Source: a bacterium (lineage in GTDB: Bacteria > Patescibacteriota > Minisyncoccia > UBA6257 > Brennerbacteraceae). Taken from it: a stretch of 31,128 bases of DNA. Positions 4,080 to 19,732 of the stretch are shown here, piece after piece. The translations under genes were made by a program, and so were the position numbers. The stretch spans positions 1 through 31,128 of the forward strand of contig DAIDAW010000001.1 of assembly GCA_027310425.1 (NCBI GenBank), in the 5' to 3' direction. Under the pieces are notes generated by a model. That model saw nothing but the letters and a program-made list of their open reading frames with translations. It searched no databases and was not told the DNA's origin. Within the stretch, counting starts at the first letter, position 1, and the number at the start of each line of letters is the position of its first letter.

Positions 4080-6023
4080 TCACAGATAAATCGTATTTTC
4101 GCTGTCGTACAGGGATGAAAGGATGCCTTGGTCCACGCGTTCTATCAGGGATTCCGGAATGTCGTTCAGGAAACGCGAAGGTTCATTCGCGCTGTATTCG
4201 CCGTGGATGAATCGGTGTTGCGCGCAGGTTAGAAACAAGTCATTCTTCGCGCGCGTCATGCCTACGTAGAGCAAGCGGCGTTCTTCTTCGATATCGTCAG
4301 GCGACCGGAGCGAACGTTCGTGCGGCAGGATGCCTTCTTCCACGCCGGCGATGAATACGATGGGGAATTCCAAACCCTTGGCGCTGTGGAGCGTCATAAG
4401 CGTGAGCACGTTGGTTCCGGTTTGCATGCGGTCCGTGTCCTGCACGAGCTGTACGCTTTCCAGGAATTGTCCAAGCGATAATGCCGCGGGTTCGTTCGGG
4501 TACGCGCGCGCGAGGCCGATCAATTCCTGAACGTTGTCCCAGCGTTCCGCTCCCTGCTCGGTTTCCGGGTCGCACCATTCTCGGTAGCCGATCTTGGCAA
4601 GTATGGTTTCGATGAGTTCGGGCAGCGGCATTGTTTTCGCGGAATCGCGGAAAAAGGCCATGGATGCTGCGAATTTCTGCGCTGCCCCCCCGATTTTCAA
4701 AGAGAGTTTCTGTGCTGCCTGTTCGATGTCCCAGCCGGTATTTTTGATCGTTTGGATCGCGCCCGGCCCGATGCCGCGCTTCGGCACATTGATGATGCGT
4801 TCCATACTCACGGAATCTTTCGGGTTGGCGATGCATTTGAGATACGCGAGCGCATCCTGGATTTCCTTGCGTTGCCAGAATCGGTATGCGCCCACGATCT
4901 GATATGGGATGGCGCGTTCCATGCAAAGCTCTTCAAAGACGCGCGATTGCACGTTCGTGCGAAACAGCACTGCGCAATCGCCCAGCGCGCATCCCTGTTT
5001 CAATTTTTCCGCGATGCGTTCCATGATCCACCACGCTTCCATGCGTTCGTCCGCCAGGCGCGCCACGACGATTTGGTTGCCGCCCGCATGTTCCGTGAAC
5101 AGGCGTTTCTCCGTGCGGTATGCGTTTTGCGCAATGACGCCGTGGCTTGCATCCAAAATCGTCTGGGTTGAACGGTAATTCTGTTCCAGAAAAAACACGC
5201 GTGTGCCCGGCCACTCCTGTTCGAAGCGGAGCAGGTGCGTGAAGTCCGCGCAGCGGAATGAATAAATGGATTGCCAGTCGTCTCCGACTACGCAGATGTT
5301 TGTGTGTGCGCGCGCGATGAGTTTCACGAGCGCGTACTGGGGAGAGTTGGTGTCCTGAAATTCGTCGATGAGGAAATAGCGGAACCTGCTTTGCAGGTTT
5401 GCCAGAATGTCCGGATGGTTTTTTGCAAGCGAGAGCGCGTGAAGGATAATGTTGTCGAAATCAACGGCATTTTTCTGTTTCAGGAGCGATTCGTATGTGT
5501 CGAACGCCTGCCGGAGCGTTTGTGGCACCGCTTCTATTCCTTGCTCGACGATTTCGCGGCCGTTCTTGATCCGGGAGATTTTCGAAAGTACGCGCGCGGC
5601 CGCATCCGATTGTCCGGTTTCTCCTCCTCCTGATTGCAGGGCATGGCGCATTAGAGTAAGCGATTCCGATTCGTCGTAGATGCTGAGCGGCAGGGAAAAA
5701 CCGAGCGTCGCGCAATGTTTTTTGAGAATGGAAAGCGCGAATTTATGGAATGTCCCCATGAATGGCAGGTTTGTTTCTCCGCCGAGCAGGTTGAGGATCC
5801 TGCGTTTCATTTCATCAGCTGCCTTATTGGTAAATGTCAGGCATACGATGGAATGCGCAGGAACTCCCGAGGCAACGAGATATGCGACTTTATGGGTAAG
5901 AGTTTTTGTTTTTCCCGATCCTGCGCCTGCGACAATCAAAACAGGACCATCTGTCGCAAGGACCGCCTGTTCCTGTCTTTTATTGAGACCCTCTAAAATT
6001 CTTGATTTTGCTTCGGGATTCAT
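4080..6023 (-). CDS. pcrA: UvrD/PcrA family SF1 DNA helicase
   Basis: AGAGSGKTK Walker A, TFTNKAA, DEFQD, VGDDWQSIY, LEQNYRST, TLHSAKGLEF, EERRLLYVGMTRA. Start moved from GTG 6065 to ATG 6023, because TGATATACT (6031-6039) sits 7 nt upstream of that ATG. Confidence 0.95.
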   Translation of the reverse strand: MNPEAKSRILEGLNKRQEQAVLATDGPVLIVAGAGSGKTKTLTHKVAYLVASGVPAHSIVCLTFTNKAADEMKRRILNLLGGETNLPFMGTFHKFALSILKKHCATLGFSLPLSIYDESESLTLMRHALQSGGGETGQSDAAARVLSKISRIKNGREIVEQGIEAVPQTLRQAFDTYESLLKQKNAVDFDNIILHALSLAKNHPDILANLQSRFRYFLIDEFQDTNSPQYALVKLIARAHTNICVVGDDWQSIYSFRCADFTHLLRFEQEWPGTRVFFLEQNYRSTQTILDASHGVIAQNAYRTEKRLFTEHAGGNQIVVARLADERMEAWWIMERIAEKLKQGCALGDCAVLFRTNVQSRVFEELCMERAIPYQIVGAYRFWQRKEIQDALAYLKCIANPKDSVSMERIINVPKRGIGPGAIQTIKNTGWDIEQAAQKLSLKIGGAAQKFAASMAFFRDSAKTMPLPELIETILAKIGYREWCDPETEQGAERWDNVQELIGLARAYPNEPAALSLGQFLESVQLVQDTDRMQTGTNVLTLMTLHSAKGLEFPIVFIAGVEEGILPHERSLRSPDDIEEERRLLYVGMTRAKNDLFLTCAQHRFIHGEYSANEPSRFLNDIPESLIERVDQGILSSLYDSENTIYL

Positions 6024-13473: not shown

Positions 13474-14715
13474 CTATCCGCTTTCCGTTTCTGCTTGCTG
13501 TTCTATTTTCTGTTCCGGCGCCGCTTCAGGAGGCGTCTGGGCATTTTCTTTATTTGCGGCGGCCTCTCCGTTTTCTGAGCGCGCGCCTTCGATTGCTTCG
13601 TCGGGCCGCGCGGATGACCTGATTTCAATGCGCCATTCGGTGAGTTTGTGCGCGAGGCGCACGTTCTGGCCATTTCTGCCGATAGCGAGCGATAGCTGGT
13701 CCGCGGGCACGAATACGCGCGCTTCGTGGTTGGGCAAGATATCAACGTCGGTGACCTTCGCCGGCGCCAGCGCATTCGGAATGAATGTTTTCGGATCGTC
13801 CGACCACAGGATGATGTCGATTTTTTCATTGCCCAGTTCTCCCATTACCGTGGTTACCCGTGTTCCTTTTTGCCCGATGCACGCGCCTTGCGGATCGACA
13901 GATTCGTTTGACGACCAGACCGCGATTTTCGTGCGCGATCCCGCTTCGCGCGCAATGGATTTGATTTCCACTGTTCCTTCCGCGATTTCCGGAACTTCCG
14001 CCTCAAAGAGTTTTGCAACGAAGCGCGGGTGCGAACGGGACAGCACCACGGATAATCCTTTGGGCGTCTGTTCGACTGCGAGCACGTAGAATTTCAGGCG
14101 TTCGCCTATGCGGTAGCGCTCCCCGGGGATAATTTCGTCGCCGAACAGGATGCCGGTTGTTTTGCCCAAATCCACGAATACGTTGCGGCCGTCCGCGCGC
14201 TGCACCGATCCGGTGATGATTTCCCCTTCTTTGGTTTTGAACGCGTCAAACATGGTTTCTTTTTCCGTTTCATGGAGTTTTTGCAGCACGGTTTGTTTTG
14301 CGGTCTGCGCCGCGATGCGGCCGAAATCAAGCTTGGTTTCGAGCGGAAATTCCAATTCTTCGCCGGGAAAAATCTCGGCATTGAATGCGCGCGCGTCGTC
14401 AATCATGATGTGCCGGTCTTCGTTGAATTTGATTTTTTTCTGCGCTTCGGAATCGTCCATGACCGGCTCTTCTTCACCCTCCTCGGTTTCTGGCTGGAGC
14501 ATGTTTTCGTCTACGACGAGCTTCACTTGCGCAAACGTGATTGCGCCGGTTTCCGGATTGAATTTCGCGCGGATGACTTCGTTTTTCGTGCGGTATTCCC
14601 TGCGGTATGCAGCGGCGAACGCAGCTTCCACGATTTCCCTGACGCGGTCCTGCGAAATGCCGCGCTCCTCGGCGATCTGGTTGATGGTTGATATAATGGT
14701 TTTGAGGTCAAACAT
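13474..14715 (-). CDS. nusA: Transcription termination/antitermination factor NusA
   Basis: FGRIAAQTAKQ, S1 domain, IAREAGSRTK, GACIG, EKIDII, SLAIGRNGQNVRLA. Start is ATG 14715; the ORF-track start (TTG at 14856) is the -35 box. Confidence 0.97.
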   Translation of the reverse strand: MFDLKTIISTINQIAEERGISQDRVREIVEAAFAAAYRREYRTKNEVIRAKFNPETGAITFAQVKLVVDENMLQPETEEGEEEPVMDDSEAQKKIKFNEDRHIMIDDARAFNAEIFPGEELEFPLETKLDFGRIAAQTAKQTVLQKLHETEKETMFDAFKTKEGEIITGSVQRADGRNVFVDLGKTTGILFGDEIIPGERYRIGERLKFYVLAVEQTPKGLSVVLSRSHPRFVAKLFEAEVPEIAEGTVEIKSIAREAGSRTKIAVWSSNESVDPQGACIGQKGTRVTTVMGELGNEKIDIILWSDDPKTFIPNALAPAKVTDVDILPNHEARVFVPADQLSLAIGRNGQNVRLAHKLTEWRIEIRSSARPDEAIEGARSENGEAAANKENAQTPPEAAPEQKIEQQAETESG

Positions 14716-14827
14716 AAAGGTAGTATGTAGTAGTTTGTATATAGTATATAGGTTTTTAGCCGTTGATAGGCATTTTCCGATTCTTTTTAAAAAGATGTCC
14801 GCTCCAAGGAGCGGCTGAACTATGTAG

Positions 14828-14856
14828 AGTATACATCGCGCAGGCTGCTCTGTCAA
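14828..14856 (-). promoter_or_regulatory. Consensus sigma70 promoter of nusA
   Basis: Minus strand TTGACA (14856-14851), 17 bp, TATACT (14833-14828). Confidence 0.85.
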
Positions 14857-15138: not shown

Positions 15139-15262
15139 ACCTGCCTCCTTCGGCGATTTGATTGCTCTATGAAATCAAAAAACGCGTTACGCGTCAAGCG
15201 CTGGACTGATGCGTGAAAATCCTGTATGCTGGCTACCACATCTTATACAGGAGGCGCCATCT

Positions 15263-15532
15263 ATGAAAAAAATGGCAATCAGTGCGTTGGTTCTGCGCGG
15301 CGAGTCATGCGTCGAGGAAGGTGACATTGCATTGCTCGTACTCATGAGTCTTGACGGTGAACGTCCGGTTGTGCACGTGAGTGAATCCGTTATTGGATTC
15401 GAATCTGTGAAAGCACTCTTCGAGGGGAAGGATCCTGATGACAAAATTCAGATAACGCTTGAGGCGGAATATCCCGAAGATCCCGCGGATTGTTGTTCCA
15501 GCAGCATCAAGCCAATCGCACTATTCATCTGA
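15263..15532 (+). CDS. Small acidic hypothetical protein (89 aa)
   Basis: AGGAGG at 15249-15254, ATG at 15263, terminator directly after the stop. Confidence 0.65.
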   Translation: MKKMAISALVLRGESCVEEGDIALLVLMSLDGERPVVHVSESVIGFESVKALFEGKDPDDKIQITLEAEYPEDPADCCSSSIKPIALFI

Positions 15533-15582: not shown

Positions 15583-15611
15583 TTGTAATTATATAGATTA
15601 TATGGTATAAT
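15583..15611 (+). promoter_or_regulatory. Promoter of candidate ncRNA-1
   Basis: TTGTAA (15583-15588), 17 bp, TG-G-TATAAT (-10 at 15606-15611). Confidence 0.7.
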
Positions 15612-15617
15612 ATAACT

Positions 15618-15739
15618 ATACGGTGAGGAGGCAAGGAGAAAACGGCGGCTATGAGCCGCGGACGCCATTGGGCGCAATAAAAATCCTCCCCTCCTCACCA
15701 TTCTAAATATAGAGGCGTTGCCATAAGCGGCGCCTTTTT
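15618..15739 (+). ncRNA. Candidate structured small RNA-1 (~120 nt), unknown class
   Basis: Ends pair: GGTGAGGAGG (15622-15631) with CCTCCTCACC (15690-15699), extended by GGAG/CTCC after a CAA bulge. A-rich internal loop, two apical hairpins, own promoter and terminator. Confidence 0.6.
15713..15739 (+). terminator. Terminator of ncRNA-1
   Basis: AGGCGTTGC-CATAA-GCGGCGCCT-TTTT; two G-U pairs favour the plus strand. Confidence 0.7.
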
Positions 15740-15750
15740 ATTGCACTCAC

Positions 15751-15778
15751 TTGACTTTTCTAGAATTAGTGCTATAAT
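15751..15778 (+). promoter_or_regulatory. Promoter of candidate ncRNA-2
   Basis: TTGACT (15751-15756), 16 bp, TG-C-TATAAT (-10 at 15773-15778). Confidence 0.8.
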
Positions 15779-15783
15779 ATACC

Positions 15784-16172
15784 TATCGTTCTTTCGATAG
15801 TCGGAAGGTTCTGAACAGATTATGTACGTAGTTTGTTCGGAGCCCTCCGGCACACCTTTTTTCCGGAGAGCAAATTCCGCTTCCCGGTGAAGACCGGGAA
15901 CTTATTGATAACGGGCCAGCGCATTTTCCATTCGCACAATCAGGTGCGCGCGCTGAATCTCCTAAGGCGTTTTCTGTGATTCGGTCGCTCCGAACACGAA
16001 ACTCTTCGCCTTTCCGTTATCGATCAATTTTTCGCGCGAATTCCGGAAATCCGCGCAAGGGAAAGTTGGGAGAACTTTCCAAGACCTGTGCCGCCAAGCC
16101 TTATGGCGCGGCGGCACAGGGGCAATCTGTTCTTTATACTATATATCGCCCAGCAATTGCTGGGCGTTTTTT
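15784..16172 (+). ncRNA. Candidate large structured RNA-2 (~390 nt), unknown class
   Basis: 23-bp 5' hairpin (15800-15851, one mismatch, five G-U pairs); TTCCCGGT-GAAG-ACCGGGAA hairpin; 11-bp long-range helix 15904-15914/16014-16024; hairpins at ~16062-16082 and 16085-16120; strong promoter and terminator; no credible ORF. Confidence 0.65.
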
Positions 16173-16491
16173 ATTTGCCAAACCGTGACAATCAATGGTA
16201 TATTTACCTTGGCAACAGGTTGCGCAAGCGCATGGTGCTCCTGGCAGCTTCCTTCGCTGCCAACTCCTTTCGTCTACTTGCTCAATGTTCTGCGTTTGCG
16301 CGAGCCGAGCTTTGCCTGTTGCCAGTTCTTTTTCGTCCGATTGGACGCTTATATTAAAAGGCGCGAGCTGATGCCCGCGCCTTTTCCCGTTTTTATAAAA
16401 AGGGGCCGCCATTGCGCGGCCCCATACGATTCTGTGCAAAGAACTGGTGTTCTGCGCCAGAGTGAGCTGAGGCACCCTGGCGCAGAACACC
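16140..16491 (-). ncRNA. Candidate large structured RNA-3 (~350 nt), unknown class
   Basis: 19-bp 5' hairpin (16446-16491); 10-bp long-range helices 16438-16447/16322-16331 and 16315-16324/16210-16219 enclosing several GC-rich hairpins; G-U pairs and A-rich loops favour the minus strand. Confidence 0.6.
16147..16172. terminator. Hairpin terminator shared by converging ncRNA-2 and ncRNA-3
   Basis: CGCCCAGC-AATT-GCTGGGCG followed by T6 on the plus strand; only an AT-rich tail on the minus strand, so weaker in that direction. Confidence 0.7.
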
Positions 16492-16525: not shown

Positions 16526-19500
16526 TCAAAGCGATGCGCTATTTTGTGCGCGCGGCGTGCCCAAAATCTGATTTTGGCCCGCGTCAAGACCATTGATGGT
16601 CGTGCCATTATTCGTTTGCCAGTTCGCAGCGAGGTTCCCCGGCGCATGCGCGTCAACGCGTTCCATGCTTGCGTTTGTTGCGTTATCTCCGGCAAACCAG
16701 CCGGCTGTCGCATCGACTTCATCAACAGTGTTGTCATGCGCATCAACAAGAAGCAGGCGTTCGCCGTTGTTGTTCAGCGCGCCGGCATATATCAAATCAG
16801 CAGGAATATCGGAAATGGTCGTATCATTCGTGCGTTCAAGCAGGAAATAGCCGTGCGTGTCGATAGATCCGGTAAGCGCGATATCGAGCGTTGCAGACGC
16901 ATTCGTGAGATGCCAGCCGGAAAGATCAACAGGGCTCTCCGAAGCATTGTACAGTTCCATCCATTCGTCATACGCAGATGTTTGCGTTCCCATCCACGCG
17001 ATTTCGTTCATGACAACCGATGAACCTGAGATCGGTTGCGGTTCAGAAGTCGGTTGCGGAGATGGGCTTGGCAACGCAAGCGGCGAATATACGGGCGAGA
17101 AATGCCACTGACGCGCATCGATCTGGCGCAGGTACAGGCCGGAACTCGGGCCTGCGTCGTATACGGACATGCTCGTTGTCAGATAATCGTTTGATGTGAT
17201 GAGCGCCGTGTCTTTGGGAATGCTCCAAATCGGCAGACGCACGATCCAAGAACTTTGTTCCGGGAACTGTTTTTGCGCGAGTTCGTTCGGGTTGATTGCC
17301 GTTGTGCTGAATCCGGAAATCGAGCATACGCCGTTGATGGGATAGCGAAATCCCGGTCTGCCGGAAAACGACGAGTTCCAGTCGCACGTGTAGTATTGCA
17401 CCGGCACGAGATTATTCTGGAAATTTTCCAGAAATCCCTCGGCGCCGATTGTGATGTCATAGTTATAGATGAAATCAGCAGTGCTGTTCAGATGAAAGCG
17501 TAATTCGTAACCGTCCGTGCTCCACGAATCCGGAGTTTGAGCAAGCGGCAGCGAATACAGGAATTCAATGCTCCATGCGCCGTTTGGTTCCGGACCCCAG
17601 CGCAGATTTTGCAGATTGGGAATCGGATGCGGTGTGGGATAAACCATCTGAGGAGACGAGGCACTCAGGAATGAGCCGAAATAACGCGTTTGATCGGGAA
17701 TAGGCGTGTCATTGGCGTAGAGCGGCCAGTATGCAAGCGCAAGAAAATCATTTGTGCCGATTTCCCTGCCGAGTGTTTGTTCGAAATGGCTGCGCGTGAT
17801 GCCTGAAGGCGCGTCTGCCTGAAGCCAATTGCTCGTGGAAAGCCGCAGCTGCGTGGGATGAACCACGATGTGCTTTGGGAATTCAGCGCTCTGGCTGTCA
17901 AATGTTCCTTGCCATTCCCAGGTTGTTTCCGAAGGACCATAGATGGGGTTGATCGTGTCTACGAATATACCGGTTTGTCTGGGAATGCTGTAGCGCGGCA
18001 TAATGGTATTGCCGCCTTCTGGTTTTGATTTTGCGGTGAGCGCCAGATCCGTATTCCACGCGGCGACAATCGTGTGGTAATCGTTGTTCGGCAAAAACGT
18101 TTGCGCGTCGAACTGAATCGTGAAAATGCCGCCCGCATCCGATGCCATGCTCGTGTCAAAATACCACGCGACATTGGTGAAGAAATCATTGCGGGATTGC
18201 TGAATCCACGGCGTTGGAGCAGGAGCCGGAGAGGGTGTCGGGAGAATGGTCGGCTCGATCGTCGGCGTAGGCTCAATCGTCGGTTTTGAGGAAGGAGCCG
18301 GTGTTGGTTCGGGCGAGAGGGTCGGTTCGGGAATCGGCGTTGGGCTTGAATTGGAAAATGCGAATGGCGCAGGATTGGTTGGAGGAACATTCGGCGCCTG
18401 TACATTGAGGAATTGCAAAAATTGCTGCGGAGTCGGGGCAGGAGCGTCGGTCTCAAGGAAAAAATTCATGAGCGGAAGCGCTGCGTTTATGTTGCGGATT
18501 TCGTCTTGCGTTGGCGGATTCGCATGTTCCTTTGCAGGATTCGGCAGAATCAGAAAAAGCGGCGGAGAGCTTGGGATTTGACTTGATGGTGTTGTTTCCA
18601 GCGCTTGCTGGTTCGCATTGTAGACAAATACCCGGGCGAATGTGTCCTGCAACGATTGCTGCTGTGTTTGAATCCATTGCAAGATCGAATCAAGCCAGGA
18701 TTGATGCTGTTGGATTTGGTGTTGTTGGGCTTCTTGGAGAAATAATGCAAGTACGCCAGCGCCATGTTGTACTGCTTTCGGGCCAAGACGAGACCAGTAA
18801 TCCTTGTTGATTAGAATGTTGTCTATTGTTGTATCAAAAATATTTCTAGTAATAAGTCCTCCATTTAAAGATTTATTCAATACCAAATGATAATCTCCGT
18901 CGTTATCCTTATCTATCCCATAATAGAATTCACCAATTTTTTCATACATAAGTGGCTCGGGCAGATTATATCCGCTTTGTATGCCGATTGTATCTTTGCT
19001 GTAAAAACCTTTGTTTGAGTAATTCGCAATCGAATCGAAATACTGATTCAAGTTTGCAAATACAACCGGTTGCTTGCTTTGCATATACGTTGCGAACTGC
19101 GTATCGGGATTGGAGAGATTGAATTGCGCTGTCCATTGTTCATACGGGCTGCCTGTTGCATGGCCGTTGTTGCGTGTATGGTCAGGCACGGATGCGTCTT
19201 CGATGAGATGCAGGATATGGCCCAGGGCAAACATCGCTTTTTCTTTGTTCGCGTTTGTCCAGTAGTCAAGCGCGGCATTCCAGGAATAATCGCTTTCCGT
19301 GCTGATCGCGAGCTTTTTCTGCTGGATTGAATCAAGAATTGACGCGATGAGCCCCGCGACTTTGTATGTCGGTTCGTTTTGTTTCGCGCTGTCCTGCGCC
19401 CAGAGCTTTGACGATTCATGCGATGTGCCGATATTCAGTTCCGCGCCAGTGCGCGTGTCGTACGTATAGCCCCGGTTGTATATGGGATCGTAGAAATGAT

Positions 19501-19732
19501 GCAGCCAGCGCGGAGAATCGTCTTCCCTGCGCGAGCCATCGATCAAATACGCTCCCAATTCTTTTGGAAATTGTTCTGCATGTGTTTGGTTATAGAGTTT
19601 GATGATTTCTTGAGTCAAAAACGCATGCGTTTCATAGTCATACGCATGCGTTTGCGAGATATTCCAAAATGTTGTTGCGAAAACAATGAGTGCTGGGATC
19701 AACGAAAGCTTCACAAGCTTTCTATTTTCCAT
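16526..19732 (-). CDS. Secreted multidomain protein (1068 aa): Zn-dependent phospholipase C/S1-P1 nuclease-like N-domain, Pro-rich stalk, unknown middle domain, C-terminal lamin-tail domain
   Basis: Signal peptide then AYDYETHAFLT, WLHHFYDP, LGHILHLIEDASVPDH, SPYE (tri-zinc helical hydrolase pattern); PEPT/PSP repeats; VVMNEIAWMGT..DEWMELYN..LNNNGE is lamin-tail-like. Confidence 0.8.
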   Translation of the reverse strand: MENRKLVKLSLIPALIVFATTFWNISQTHAYDYETHAFLTQEIIKLYNQTHAEQFPKELGAYLIDGSRREDDSPRWLHHFYDPIYNRGYTYDTRTGAELNIGTSHESSKLWAQDSAKQNEPTYKVAGLIASILDSIQQKKLAISTESDYSWNAALDYWTNANKEKAMFALGHILHLIEDASVPDHTRNNGHATGSPYEQWTAQFNLSNPDTQFATYMQSKQPVVFANLNQYFDSIANYSNKGFYSKDTIGIQSGYNLPEPLMYEKIGEFYYGIDKDNDGDYHLVLNKSLNGGLITRNIFDTTIDNILINKDYWSRLGPKAVQHGAGVLALFLQEAQQHQIQQHQSWLDSILQWIQTQQQSLQDTFARVFVYNANQQALETTPSSQIPSSPPLFLILPNPAKEHANPPTQDEIRNINAALPLMNFFLETDAPAPTPQQFLQFLNVQAPNVPPTNPAPFAFSNSSPTPIPEPTLSPEPTPAPSSKPTIEPTPTIEPTILPTPSPAPAPTPWIQQSRNDFFTNVAWYFDTSMASDAGGIFTIQFDAQTFLPNNDYHTIVAAWNTDLALTAKSKPEGGNTIMPRYSIPRQTGIFVDTINPIYGPSETTWEWQGTFDSQSAEFPKHIVVHPTQLRLSTSNWLQADAPSGITRSHFEQTLGREIGTNDFLALAYWPLYANDTPIPDQTRYFGSFLSASSPQMVYPTPHPIPNLQNLRWGPEPNGAWSIEFLYSLPLAQTPDSWSTDGYELRFHLNSTADFIYNYDITIGAEGFLENFQNNLVPVQYYTCDWNSSFSGRPGFRYPINGVCSISGFSTTAINPNELAQKQFPEQSSWIVRLPIWSIPKDTALITSNDYLTTSMSVYDAGPSSGLYLRQIDARQWHFSPVYSPLALPSPSPQPTSEPQPISGSSVVMNEIAWMGTQTSAYDEWMELYNASESPVDLSGWHLTNASATLDIALTGSIDTHGYFLLERTNDTTISDIPADLIYAGALNNNGERLLLVDAHDNTVDEVDATAGWFAGDNATNASMERVDAHAPGNLAANWQTNNGTTINGLDAGQNQILGTPRAQNSASL

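Follow-up and report, generated by a model that had tools for sequence, protein, structure and literature searches.

The window analysed here is a contig (C11) of 31,128 nucleotides (nt) from a Patescibacteria genome of 548 kb that has a G+C content of 52% and is 91% complete; by its NusA relatives the genome falls within the Parcubacteria/Paceibacteria part of Patescibacteria, and the sequencing runs that contain its DNA are labelled as mine-drainage metagenome. Within it, the gene nusA (13474-14856, minus strand) and the gene for a 1068-amino-acid (aa) protein with a lamin-tail domain (LTD; 16526-19732, minus strand) flank a 1.67-kb intergene without a credible long reading frame, and this intergene holds the 356-nt stretch that is the subject of our study. 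A previous sequence-only reading of the stretch had proposed a single minus-strand RNA of ~350 nt, running from ~16490 to ~16140 in two abutting domains, which would be related to a neighbouring unit called RNA-2 and would share its terminator. Our analysis leads to a different picture, in which the stretch probably contains two separate small-RNA (sRNA) genes that converge tail to tail. One of them, RNA-A, lies on the plus strand; the other, RNA-B, lies on the minus strand and belongs to a hairpin family of Anaerolineales and viral contigs.

Anatomy and conservation of RNA-A and RNA-B

All of the helices named in the sequence-only reading were found at their places in the sequence. These comprise a 19-bp hairpin at the predicted minus-strand start (16446-16491, 12 of its 19 pairs being G-C), the arm GGGGCCGC/GCGGCCCC (16402-16423, followed by TTTTT on the minus strand), the arm AAAAGGCGCG/CGCGCCTTTT (a hairpin at ~16356-16385 that is seen in the sequence and in the folds and that a simple terminator scan did not call), and a GTCC/GGAC arm located within 16334-16347. 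Two longer-range pairings were also present, namely a 10-bp helix of TGGCAACAGG (16210) with CCTGTTGCCA (16315) and a 10-bp inverted repeat of CCAGTTCTTT (16322-16331) with AAAGAACTGG (16438-16447). When the region was subjected to dinucleotide shuffling, 4.9% of the shuffles contained at least one long-range 10-bp inverted repeat and 1.25% contained at least two. Predicted folding energies of the 356-nt stretch are -167 kcal/mol for the minus strand and -164 kcal/mol for the plus strand, as compared with approximately -114 kcal/mol for the shuffles (z of -9.1 and -9.5, respectively). The structure is real, since it lies far beyond chance, but the fold does not identify the strand.

Two syntenic relatives, L093 and L101, were identified among ENA and NCBI assemblies by protein searches that used the 1068-aa protein and NusA as queries. 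Both are stored in the opposite orientation, their minus strand being equivalent to the plus strand of the window. L093 is the same locus as L094, L105 and L107 (L107 being identical to it); its NusA is 84% identical to that of the window, and the gene beside its RNA island encodes a 932-aa protein homologous to that of 1068 aa, with 62% identity where the two align. The window, L093 and L101 have their gene order and RNA island in common, with nusA on one side and, among the relatives in L093 only, the LTD gene on the other. In both relatives the space before nusA is likewise filled with promoter-to-terminator units and small unnamed frames. A DNA search with the region in 40 related genomes returned only the self match, and neither blastn nor nhmmer found a match to it among 80 NusA-anchored Patescibacteria loci; the contigs of P0123, P0124, P0241 and P0242 end too close upstream of nusA to include the RNAs.

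RNA-B is predicted to be an sRNA of ~95 nt (~16488-16396, minus strand) consisting of a hairpin, a 22-nt linker and a terminator. Its promoter (16522-16495) is composed of TTGCAA (16522-16517), a 16-nt spacer and TACGAT (16500-16495), with a TG before the -10 hexamer; it begins 4 nt past the stop codon of the 1068-aa gene and ends 3 nt before the hairpin. A predicted promoter of the form TTGCAA-16/17-TAnnnT precedes the long hairpin in the window, L093 and L101 alike, in agreement with the minus-strand start near 16490 that had been proposed earlier. The long hairpin (16446-16491) has an apical stem AGGGUG/CACUCU and the loop CCUCAGCU, and the terminator GGGGCCGC...GCGGCCCC (16402-16423) has 8 G-C pairs and then UUUUU. 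Transcription of RNA-B would start from TTGCAA-16-TACGAT just after the stop codon of the 1068-aa gene, pass through the long hairpin and the linker, and stop at the GGGGCCGC/U5 terminator, which probably serves the mRNA of the 1068-aa gene as well. The predicted RNA folds at -60.7 kcal/mol.

The same order of parts was observed in L093 and L101, where TTGCAA, a 17-nt spacer and TAnnnT are followed by the hairpin, 11-24 nt and a canonical terminator (L093 9695-9716; L101 3485-3506). The lower stems of the three lineages differ in sequence yet stay paired, and the apex AGGGUGCC...CUCACYCU is common to them. L093 and the first L101 copy keep the loop CCCCCCU; the other L101 copy has diverged further, to the loop AACCCU, and has a TTGCAA-17-TATACT promoter and a terminator of its own. 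In L093, two opposite-strand genes and a separate terminator stand between the LTD gene and RNA-B, and RNA-B there is therefore not the 3' untranslated region (UTR) of the LTD gene.

RNA-A is a predicted plus-strand sRNA of ~180 nt (~16211-16392). Its promoter (16175-16204) has TTGCCA, an 18-nt spacer and TATATT, with a TG before the -10 hexamer, and scores 10/12 with the TG. The layout TTTGCaAAA ... ATGgTA, followed by the 5' arm, also stands upstream of the orthologous helix in L093 and L101, and the spacing from promoter to helix would place the start at ~16211, approximately the first base of the 5' arm TGGCAACAGG. The ~115-nt domain (16210-16324) is closed by a helix, P1, in which 16210-16219 pairs with 16315-16324. 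All 10 P1 positions are paired in the window and in L101, and 9 of 10 are paired in L093; a distance of 95 nt separates the two arms in the window as well as in L093. In pairwise comparisons of the lineages, P1 shows six double compensatory changes for the window and L101, five for L093 and L101, and a single one for the window and L093. A three-way MAFFT/RNAalifold alignment of RNA-A misplaced the 5' arm of L101. Judged by these compensatory changes, the TGGCAACAGG domain is a real, selected structure. The earlier proposal was thus right about the TGGCAACAGG/CCTGTTGCCA helix; its placement on the minus strand is not supported, given the plus-strand promoter of the domain and the T-runs of the relatives, which are plus-sense only.

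Downstream of this domain lies a small hairpin CGTCC/GGACG (16334-16347, plus strand), which is GCCC/GGGC in L093 and L101 with one compensatory change; in the relatives its outer pair is U-G on the RNA-A strand. It is followed by the terminator hairpin AAAAGGCGCG...CGCGCCTTTT (16356-16394), which has T-runs on both strands in the window and was assigned to the plus strand. The orthologous terminators (L093 9771-9748; L101 3562-3537) carry T-runs solely on the strand of RNA-A, and the terminator is kept with compensatory changes in all three lineages, as is the order of domain, small hairpin and terminator. RNA-A would accordingly be read from its extended -10 promoter, with the 5' arm of the 10-bp closing helix first, then the small hairpin, and would end at the AAAAGGCGCG hairpin; the predicted 3' ends of RNA-A and RNA-B would abut at ~16388-16397. 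The RNA-A fold has an energy of -76.8 kcal/mol (z of -5.1). No reading frame in RNA-A is conserved between the window and L093 or L101, and we infer that it is most simply a fast-evolving, lineage-specific trans-acting sRNA.

The inverted repeat CCAGTTCTTT/AAAGAACTGG (16322-16331 and 16438-16447) spans both genes, as a result of which RNA-A and RNA-B each carry CCAGUUCUUU in their own sense. The RNA-B linker of L101 carries CAGTTCTTT and shares CAGUUCUUU with the window; the matching inverted copy of the repeat is absent in both L093 and L101. The ~125-nt domain that had been drawn as closed by this repeat would enclose two intrinsic terminators and is not kept in the relatives. Of these helices, the long hairpin and TGGCAACAGG/CCTGTTGCCA covary and CCAGTTCTTT/AAAGAACTGG is not conserved.

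A hairpin family in Anaerolineales and on viral contigs

An exact pattern made up of the promoter hexamer and the apex of the RNA-B hairpin was searched for in a genome collection with a single representative of each prokaryotic species. The scan returned 103 stretches, nearly all labelled Chloroflexota and mostly Anaerolineales, where approximately 7 were expected by chance (a rough estimate from the size of the collection and the information in the pattern). A good and correctly spaced -10 hexamer was present in all of them, although the pattern did not demand one. In the resulting family, a promoter (TTGCAA or TTGACA, a 17-nt spacer and TAnAAT, the -10 hexamer ending 3-9 nt before the stem) lies right upstream of a 16-bp stem that is made up of 10 freely covarying lower pairs and the apical stem AGGGUG/CACYCU and that presents the 7-nt loop CCCCCCU.

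Forty-six of the pattern stretches were aligned with four Patescibacteria copies, that of the window included (n=50). Standard pairs fill 97.3% of the cells of this alignment, and 11 pairs show double changes, with 212 double-change cells overall. The covariation score was 0.718, as compared with 0.207 in shuffles, none of which (0/500) reached 0.718; slid controls of the alignment were 38-47% paired. Read from the opposite strand, the 19 U-G and 15 G-U pairs would become A-C mismatches, so that the strand of the family is that of the promoter. On the basis of this covariation, the long hairpin is a real RNA structure on the minus strand.

A covariance model, R1, was built from the 50-sequence alignment. 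It scored the window hairpin at 43.2 bits (E of 2.7e-11) on the minus strand, a value that is somewhat inflated because the window is among the building sequences, and at 18.8 bits on the plus strand; this is the sole copy in the genome. Copies from Anaerolineales score 44-69 bits. The window hairpin has 19 contiguous pairs and the apical stem AGGGUG/CACUCU, including a G-U pair that occurs in 15 of the 50 members. Its promoter, TTGCAA-16-TACGAT with a TG, is of the family type and weak (8/12), and its terminator lies 22 nt downstream, a layout common to many chromosomal copies. The loop is not the 7-nt CCCCCCU of the family, and the window copy is thus a diverged member. Matches obtained with R1 and not with the pattern also have upstream promoters. 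In these, the outermost apical pair (A-U to U-A or C-G) and the fourth (G-C to A-U) covary, while the loop CCCCCCU is fixed.

None of the families in Rfam 15 matches RNA-B, the Anaerolineales loci included, and the only gathering-level match in the window is a tRNA. At E values up to 10, the region gave only sub-threshold, chance-like matches (microRNA precursors, BjrC174 and the trpB motif). 6S RNA (RF00013) matched neither in the genome nor, at E up to 10, in the region, and signal recognition particle (SRP) RNA (RF00169) matched in neither; the SRP RNA of Anaerolineales genomes sits at loci other than those of the hairpin family. The hairpin was not found in the literature that we searched. 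By the evidence of alignment and model, RNA-B is a diverged member of an undescribed family of hairpin sRNAs that is new to Rfam 15.

R1 found 1-4 copies in each of four Anaerolineales genomes and matches in 14 of 151 genomes that sample Chloroflexota evenly. There were no matches in 150 genomes sampled across Patescibacteria. One weak match (26.8 bits, L213) came from 150 genomes of the window's own order; it is doubtful as a family member, lacks a TTGCAA promoter and could simply be a terminator of the usual kind. Of 104 family matches, 47 follow a same-strand tRNA-Arg(CCU) at a distance of 72-145 nt. In Anaerolineales the family occupies core chromosomal positions; the neighbours of these 47 copies are housekeeping genes, for example FtsK upstream and a convergent gene for a class-V aminotransferase, RecN or GcvT downstream. 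Some copies end in an AUUUAA/U-rich tail facing a convergent gene, and others have a separate terminator. The 19-nt apex was also detected on 29 IMG/VR viral contigs directly behind strong promoters, in one case between the large terminase and portal genes. A comparison of the Anaerolineales loci with the RNA islands revealed nothing in common except RNA-B. The hairpin is common in Chloroflexota, occurs on viral contigs and is almost missing from other Patescibacteria, a distribution which suggests that the lineage of the window acquired it horizontally.

Six of the viral loci (L240, L250, L251, L253, L260 and L261) have a GAAC-N4-GTTC palindrome in the promoter spacer, which is perfect in L240 and L253 and imperfect in the others. 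This motif is the LexA/SOS-box consensus of Gram-positive bacteria and some Chloroflexota; its presence would suggest that these viral hairpin promoters are induced by DNA damage.

Alternative explanations and a possible mode of action

Several observations weigh against the reading of the stretch as two convergent sRNA genes. Transcription, strand and RNA ends in the window are all deduced from the sequence, and the transfer of the hairpin between lineages is deduced from its distribution. The RNA-B promoter of the window is weak, at 8/12 with the TG, and falls below the scan threshold. Its 8-nt loop CCUCAGCU differs from the CCCCCCU of the family, so that the window copy may have switched to another partner or be in decay. 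Because the search used an exact pattern, the apex was in part bound to be constant among the 103 stretches. The RNA-A terminator has T-runs on both strands in the window and escaped the terminator scan, folding energies favour neither strand for RNA-A, and RNA-A is known from three lineages only, with an interior that is poorly alignable.

The RNA-B hairpin could also act in cis, either as a promoter-proximal modifier of RNA polymerase, as a control of read-through, or by a C-rich loop that sequesters a nearby G-rich ribosome-binding site. At every locus the hairpin starts only a few nt from where transcription is predicted to begin, and many copies end in a weak AUUUAA tail that is followed by more sequence or genes. 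In addition, 31% of the Anaerolineales loci L108-L210 have a GGGG run in the first 60 nt downstream, as compared with 14% for the next 60 nt, and the runs cluster 10-27 nt downstream, where they could pair with the CCCCCC of the loop. This enrichment is modest, however, and not universal. Many copies stand directly before a strong terminator or a convergent gene, with nothing downstream to control, and the next element after the hairpin in the window is itself a terminator. We therefore regard a cis role as the explanation of the stretch as unlikely.

Slightly less credible is the view that there are no free-standing sRNAs at all, the hairpins of 16334-16491 being a terminator stack or 3' UTR that serves the 1068-aa gene and read-through from RNA-2, with promoters that arose by chance. 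The long hairpin does start 35 nt past the stop codon of the 1068-aa gene, three of the hairpins have T-runs, and the region has 6 promoter-like sites where 2.6 are expected. Moreover, at the Anaerolineae locus L177, metatranscriptome contigs from four runs are continuous with the flanking genes; being assembled contigs, they are uninformative on discrete RNAs, strand and ends. A spacer of this kind would nevertheless have no need of the compensatory changes that keep P1 of RNA-A. At more than 100 loci, members of the family of the long hairpin combine the invariant apex with a promoter of their own, and many of these loci have no same-strand gene upstream; in L093 the intervening opposite-strand genes and terminator cut the hairpin off from the LTD gene.

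The single minus-strand RNA of the sequence-only reading is improbable. All of its helices exist, both closing helices appear in the minus-strand minimum-energy structure (z of -9.1), and there is a conserved minus-strand promoter near 16490. Such an RNA would, however, have to read through two consecutive intrinsic terminators (16423-16402 and then 16385-16356), and a terminator follows the minus-strand hairpin unit within ~25 nt in all three lineages. Neither L093 nor L101 has the CCAGTTCTTT helix, and the 115-nt domain has a conserved promoter, and in the relatives single-strand terminators, on the other strand. Nor was the supposed sharing of the RNA-2 terminator confirmed. This terminator (16147-16166, plus strand) is an 8-bp G+C-rich stem outside RNA-A and RNA-B, and it has a T-run, TTTTTT, on the plus strand only.

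The proposed relationship to RNA-2 found no support in sequence similarity or predicted pairing either. RNA-2 is conserved (window 15751-16172, plus strand; L093 10758-10296 and L101 5018-~4608, minus strand) and has in all three lineages an identical TTGACT-16-TATAAT promoter with a TG, a similar 5' hairpin and a plus-sense terminator. It does not converge with the stretch as had been thought, since RNA-2 and RNA-A are arranged in tandem on the plus strand and it is RNA-A and RNA-B that converge. RNA-2 (15785-16172) showed no blastn similarity to the region at word size 7 and E up to 10; blastn found no paralogs of the region in the genome, and no Rfam family matches RNA-2. As a pairing partner RNA-2 fared no better, its predicted RNAduplex duplexes with RNA-A (z of -0.8) and RNA-B (z of -1.9) being no stronger than shuffled controls under a program that allows unrealistically long loops, and there was no consistent support for pairing.

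It is also possible to ask whether the hairpin RNA is a core regulatory RNA of Anaerolineales of which phages and this Patescibacteria lineage carry copies that mimic it or interfere with it, a proposal that we consider just as improbable as the single long RNA. Were it true, Anaerolineales would be the host of this Patescibacteria lineage, which would be the first episymbiont to encode a host-type sRNA, beside its gene for the LTD protein. The least credible alternative, a convergent toxin-antitoxin-like or mutually antisense pair in the type I style, has in its favour the tail-to-tail arrangement kept in three lineages and a hydrophobic 41-codon frame in the window RNA-A (ATG at 16233, inside the 16088-16357 frame), but can practically be set aside, as the frame lacks both a Shine-Dalgarno sequence and conservation (in L093, stop codons appear after 11-16 codons and the frames are unrelated), the predicted 3' ends abut and do not overlap, the RNA-A/RNA-B duplexes predicted by RNAduplex have z of -1.4, -2.6 and 0.0 in the three lineages, and RNA-B occurs without RNA-A at all Anaerolineales and viral loci.

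If the stretch does hold two convergent sRNA genes, the hairpin family offers some guidance as to how RNA-B might work. Since the stem is free in sequence and the loop constant wherever examined, the loop would be the functional surface. Within this model, we favour, at somewhat short of even likelihood, pairing of the C-rich loop with a G-rich site in a partner RNA. Binding of the loop by a protein comes next as a tentative possibility, and a cis role on downstream sequence would be less likely still.

Among known systems, one analogy is with the RsaE/RoxS-type sRNAs of Bacillota (Rfam RF01820), which are short sRNAs with their own promoter and terminator whose exposed C-rich motif pairs with G-rich ribosome-binding sites. 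The RNA-B family is also short and predicted to be free-standing, and its most conserved feature would likewise be an exposed C-rich motif. In contrast to RsaE/RoxS, which have several C-rich regions, it has a single 16-bp hairpin with one 7-nt loop; it occurs in other phyla and has no Rfam match, and target pairing by RNA-B is hypothetical. Yfr1 of cyanobacteria is a very small sRNA with an ultra-conserved C/U-rich motif unpaired between two hairpins. The RNA-B family similarly presents a conserved C-rich motif on an otherwise variable stem, but here the motif is the apical loop and part of the stem, and there is no sequence relation to Yfr1 and no Rfam match.

The hairpins at 16402-16423, ~16356-16385 and 16147-16166 fit the definition of an intrinsic terminator as a G+C-rich stem with a U-run, and many family members have a U-rich tail directly after the hairpin. 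Unlike the family hairpin, however, terminators do not have a loop and apical stem that are invariant across species, nor a dedicated promoter 3-9 nt upstream. In type I toxin-antitoxin systems with convergent short transcripts, of which txpA/RatA is an example, the arrangement resembles the tail-to-tail convergence of RNA-A and RNA-B, whereas these two have no conserved peptide frame, 3' overlap or significant complementarity. Small RNAs shared by hosts and phages include RNA anti-CRISPRs, which copy CRISPR repeats. Here the likeness is conceptual only and consists in a hairpin RNA found on both host chromosomes and viral contigs; the hairpin is unlike a CRISPR repeat in length and stem size, and no array or cas context was seen.

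To our knowledge, almost nothing is known of regulatory RNA in Patescibacteria. The lineage of the window keeps more than 1.6 kb of promoter-to-terminator RNA units despite the tiny, gene-dense genomes of this group, and the hairpin RNA links it with Anaerolineales chromosomes and viral contigs. Such a distribution is a hint of gene flow involving an uncultured symbiont and perhaps of a tie to its host. The family is well defined and easily testable, being a very small RNA with textbook covariation, and some Anaerolineales are cultured. For annotation, the locus illustrates that what looks like one large RNA, with perfect helices stacked on both strands, can be a pair of convergent genes.

Neighbouring units and genes

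Further units were observed beside RNA-2 and RNA-A. RNA-1 of the window (15583-15745, plus strand) has a sequence match in L101 at ~5030-5202, and at the RNA-1 position of L093 (10887-11105) the opposite strand has a 72-aa hydrophobic frame. Both relatives, unlike the window, have an additional promoter-to-terminator unit of ~200 nt (L093 10290-9945; L101 4400-4100; minus strand in both), which is preceded by three palindromes of the GTTTC-N4-GAAAC type that look like operator sites. L101 has another unit at 4044-3800 (minus strand), with the RNA-A-type promoter TTTGCAAAA...TGGTATAGT and an 11-bp closing helix AGCCAGGCAGA/TCTGCCAGGCT, which may be a paralog of RNA-A.

A 107-aa frame is shared by the window (15209-15532, plus strand) and L093 (11464-11174, minus strand) at only 29% identity, with the same terminator hairpin right after the stop in both, and L093 and L101 have several further small unnamed frames (74-92 aa) on the same strand as the 107-aa frame. 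A Pfam search of the small frames of the island, these included, matched no family. Over the whole genome (G000), the Rfam models found a transfer-messenger RNA normally (C5:6190-6563) and RNase P RNA (C13:5273-5768) at only 40 bits; the lack of SRP RNA and 6S RNA matches is that of a genome 91% complete and does not establish their absence.

Many of the best matches to the C-terminal third of the 1068-aa protein, which holds the lamin-tail domain, are labelled Chloroflexota, Anaerolineae or Anaerolineales. These Chloroflexota-labelled LTD matches come from the same group as the hairpin RNA family and span only approximately one third of the region searched.

Among the loci whose NusA is 64-75% identical, the sequence preceding nusA is either compact (L014, L015), unrelated (L013) or occupied by transposase or integrase genes. 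In the P0125 loci L096-L100, in which NusA is 75% identical, three of five have an IS1595-type transposase or rve integrase upstream of nusA, which makes this position an apparent hot spot of insertion across the wider group. The nusA frame of the window itself (460 aa, from a TTG start at 14856 on the minus strand) is probably too long over 14718-14856. The alignment of window and L093 NusA starts at MFDLKTI, 46 codons into the window frame, and a promoter-like site with a score of 11/12 overlaps 14856-14828.

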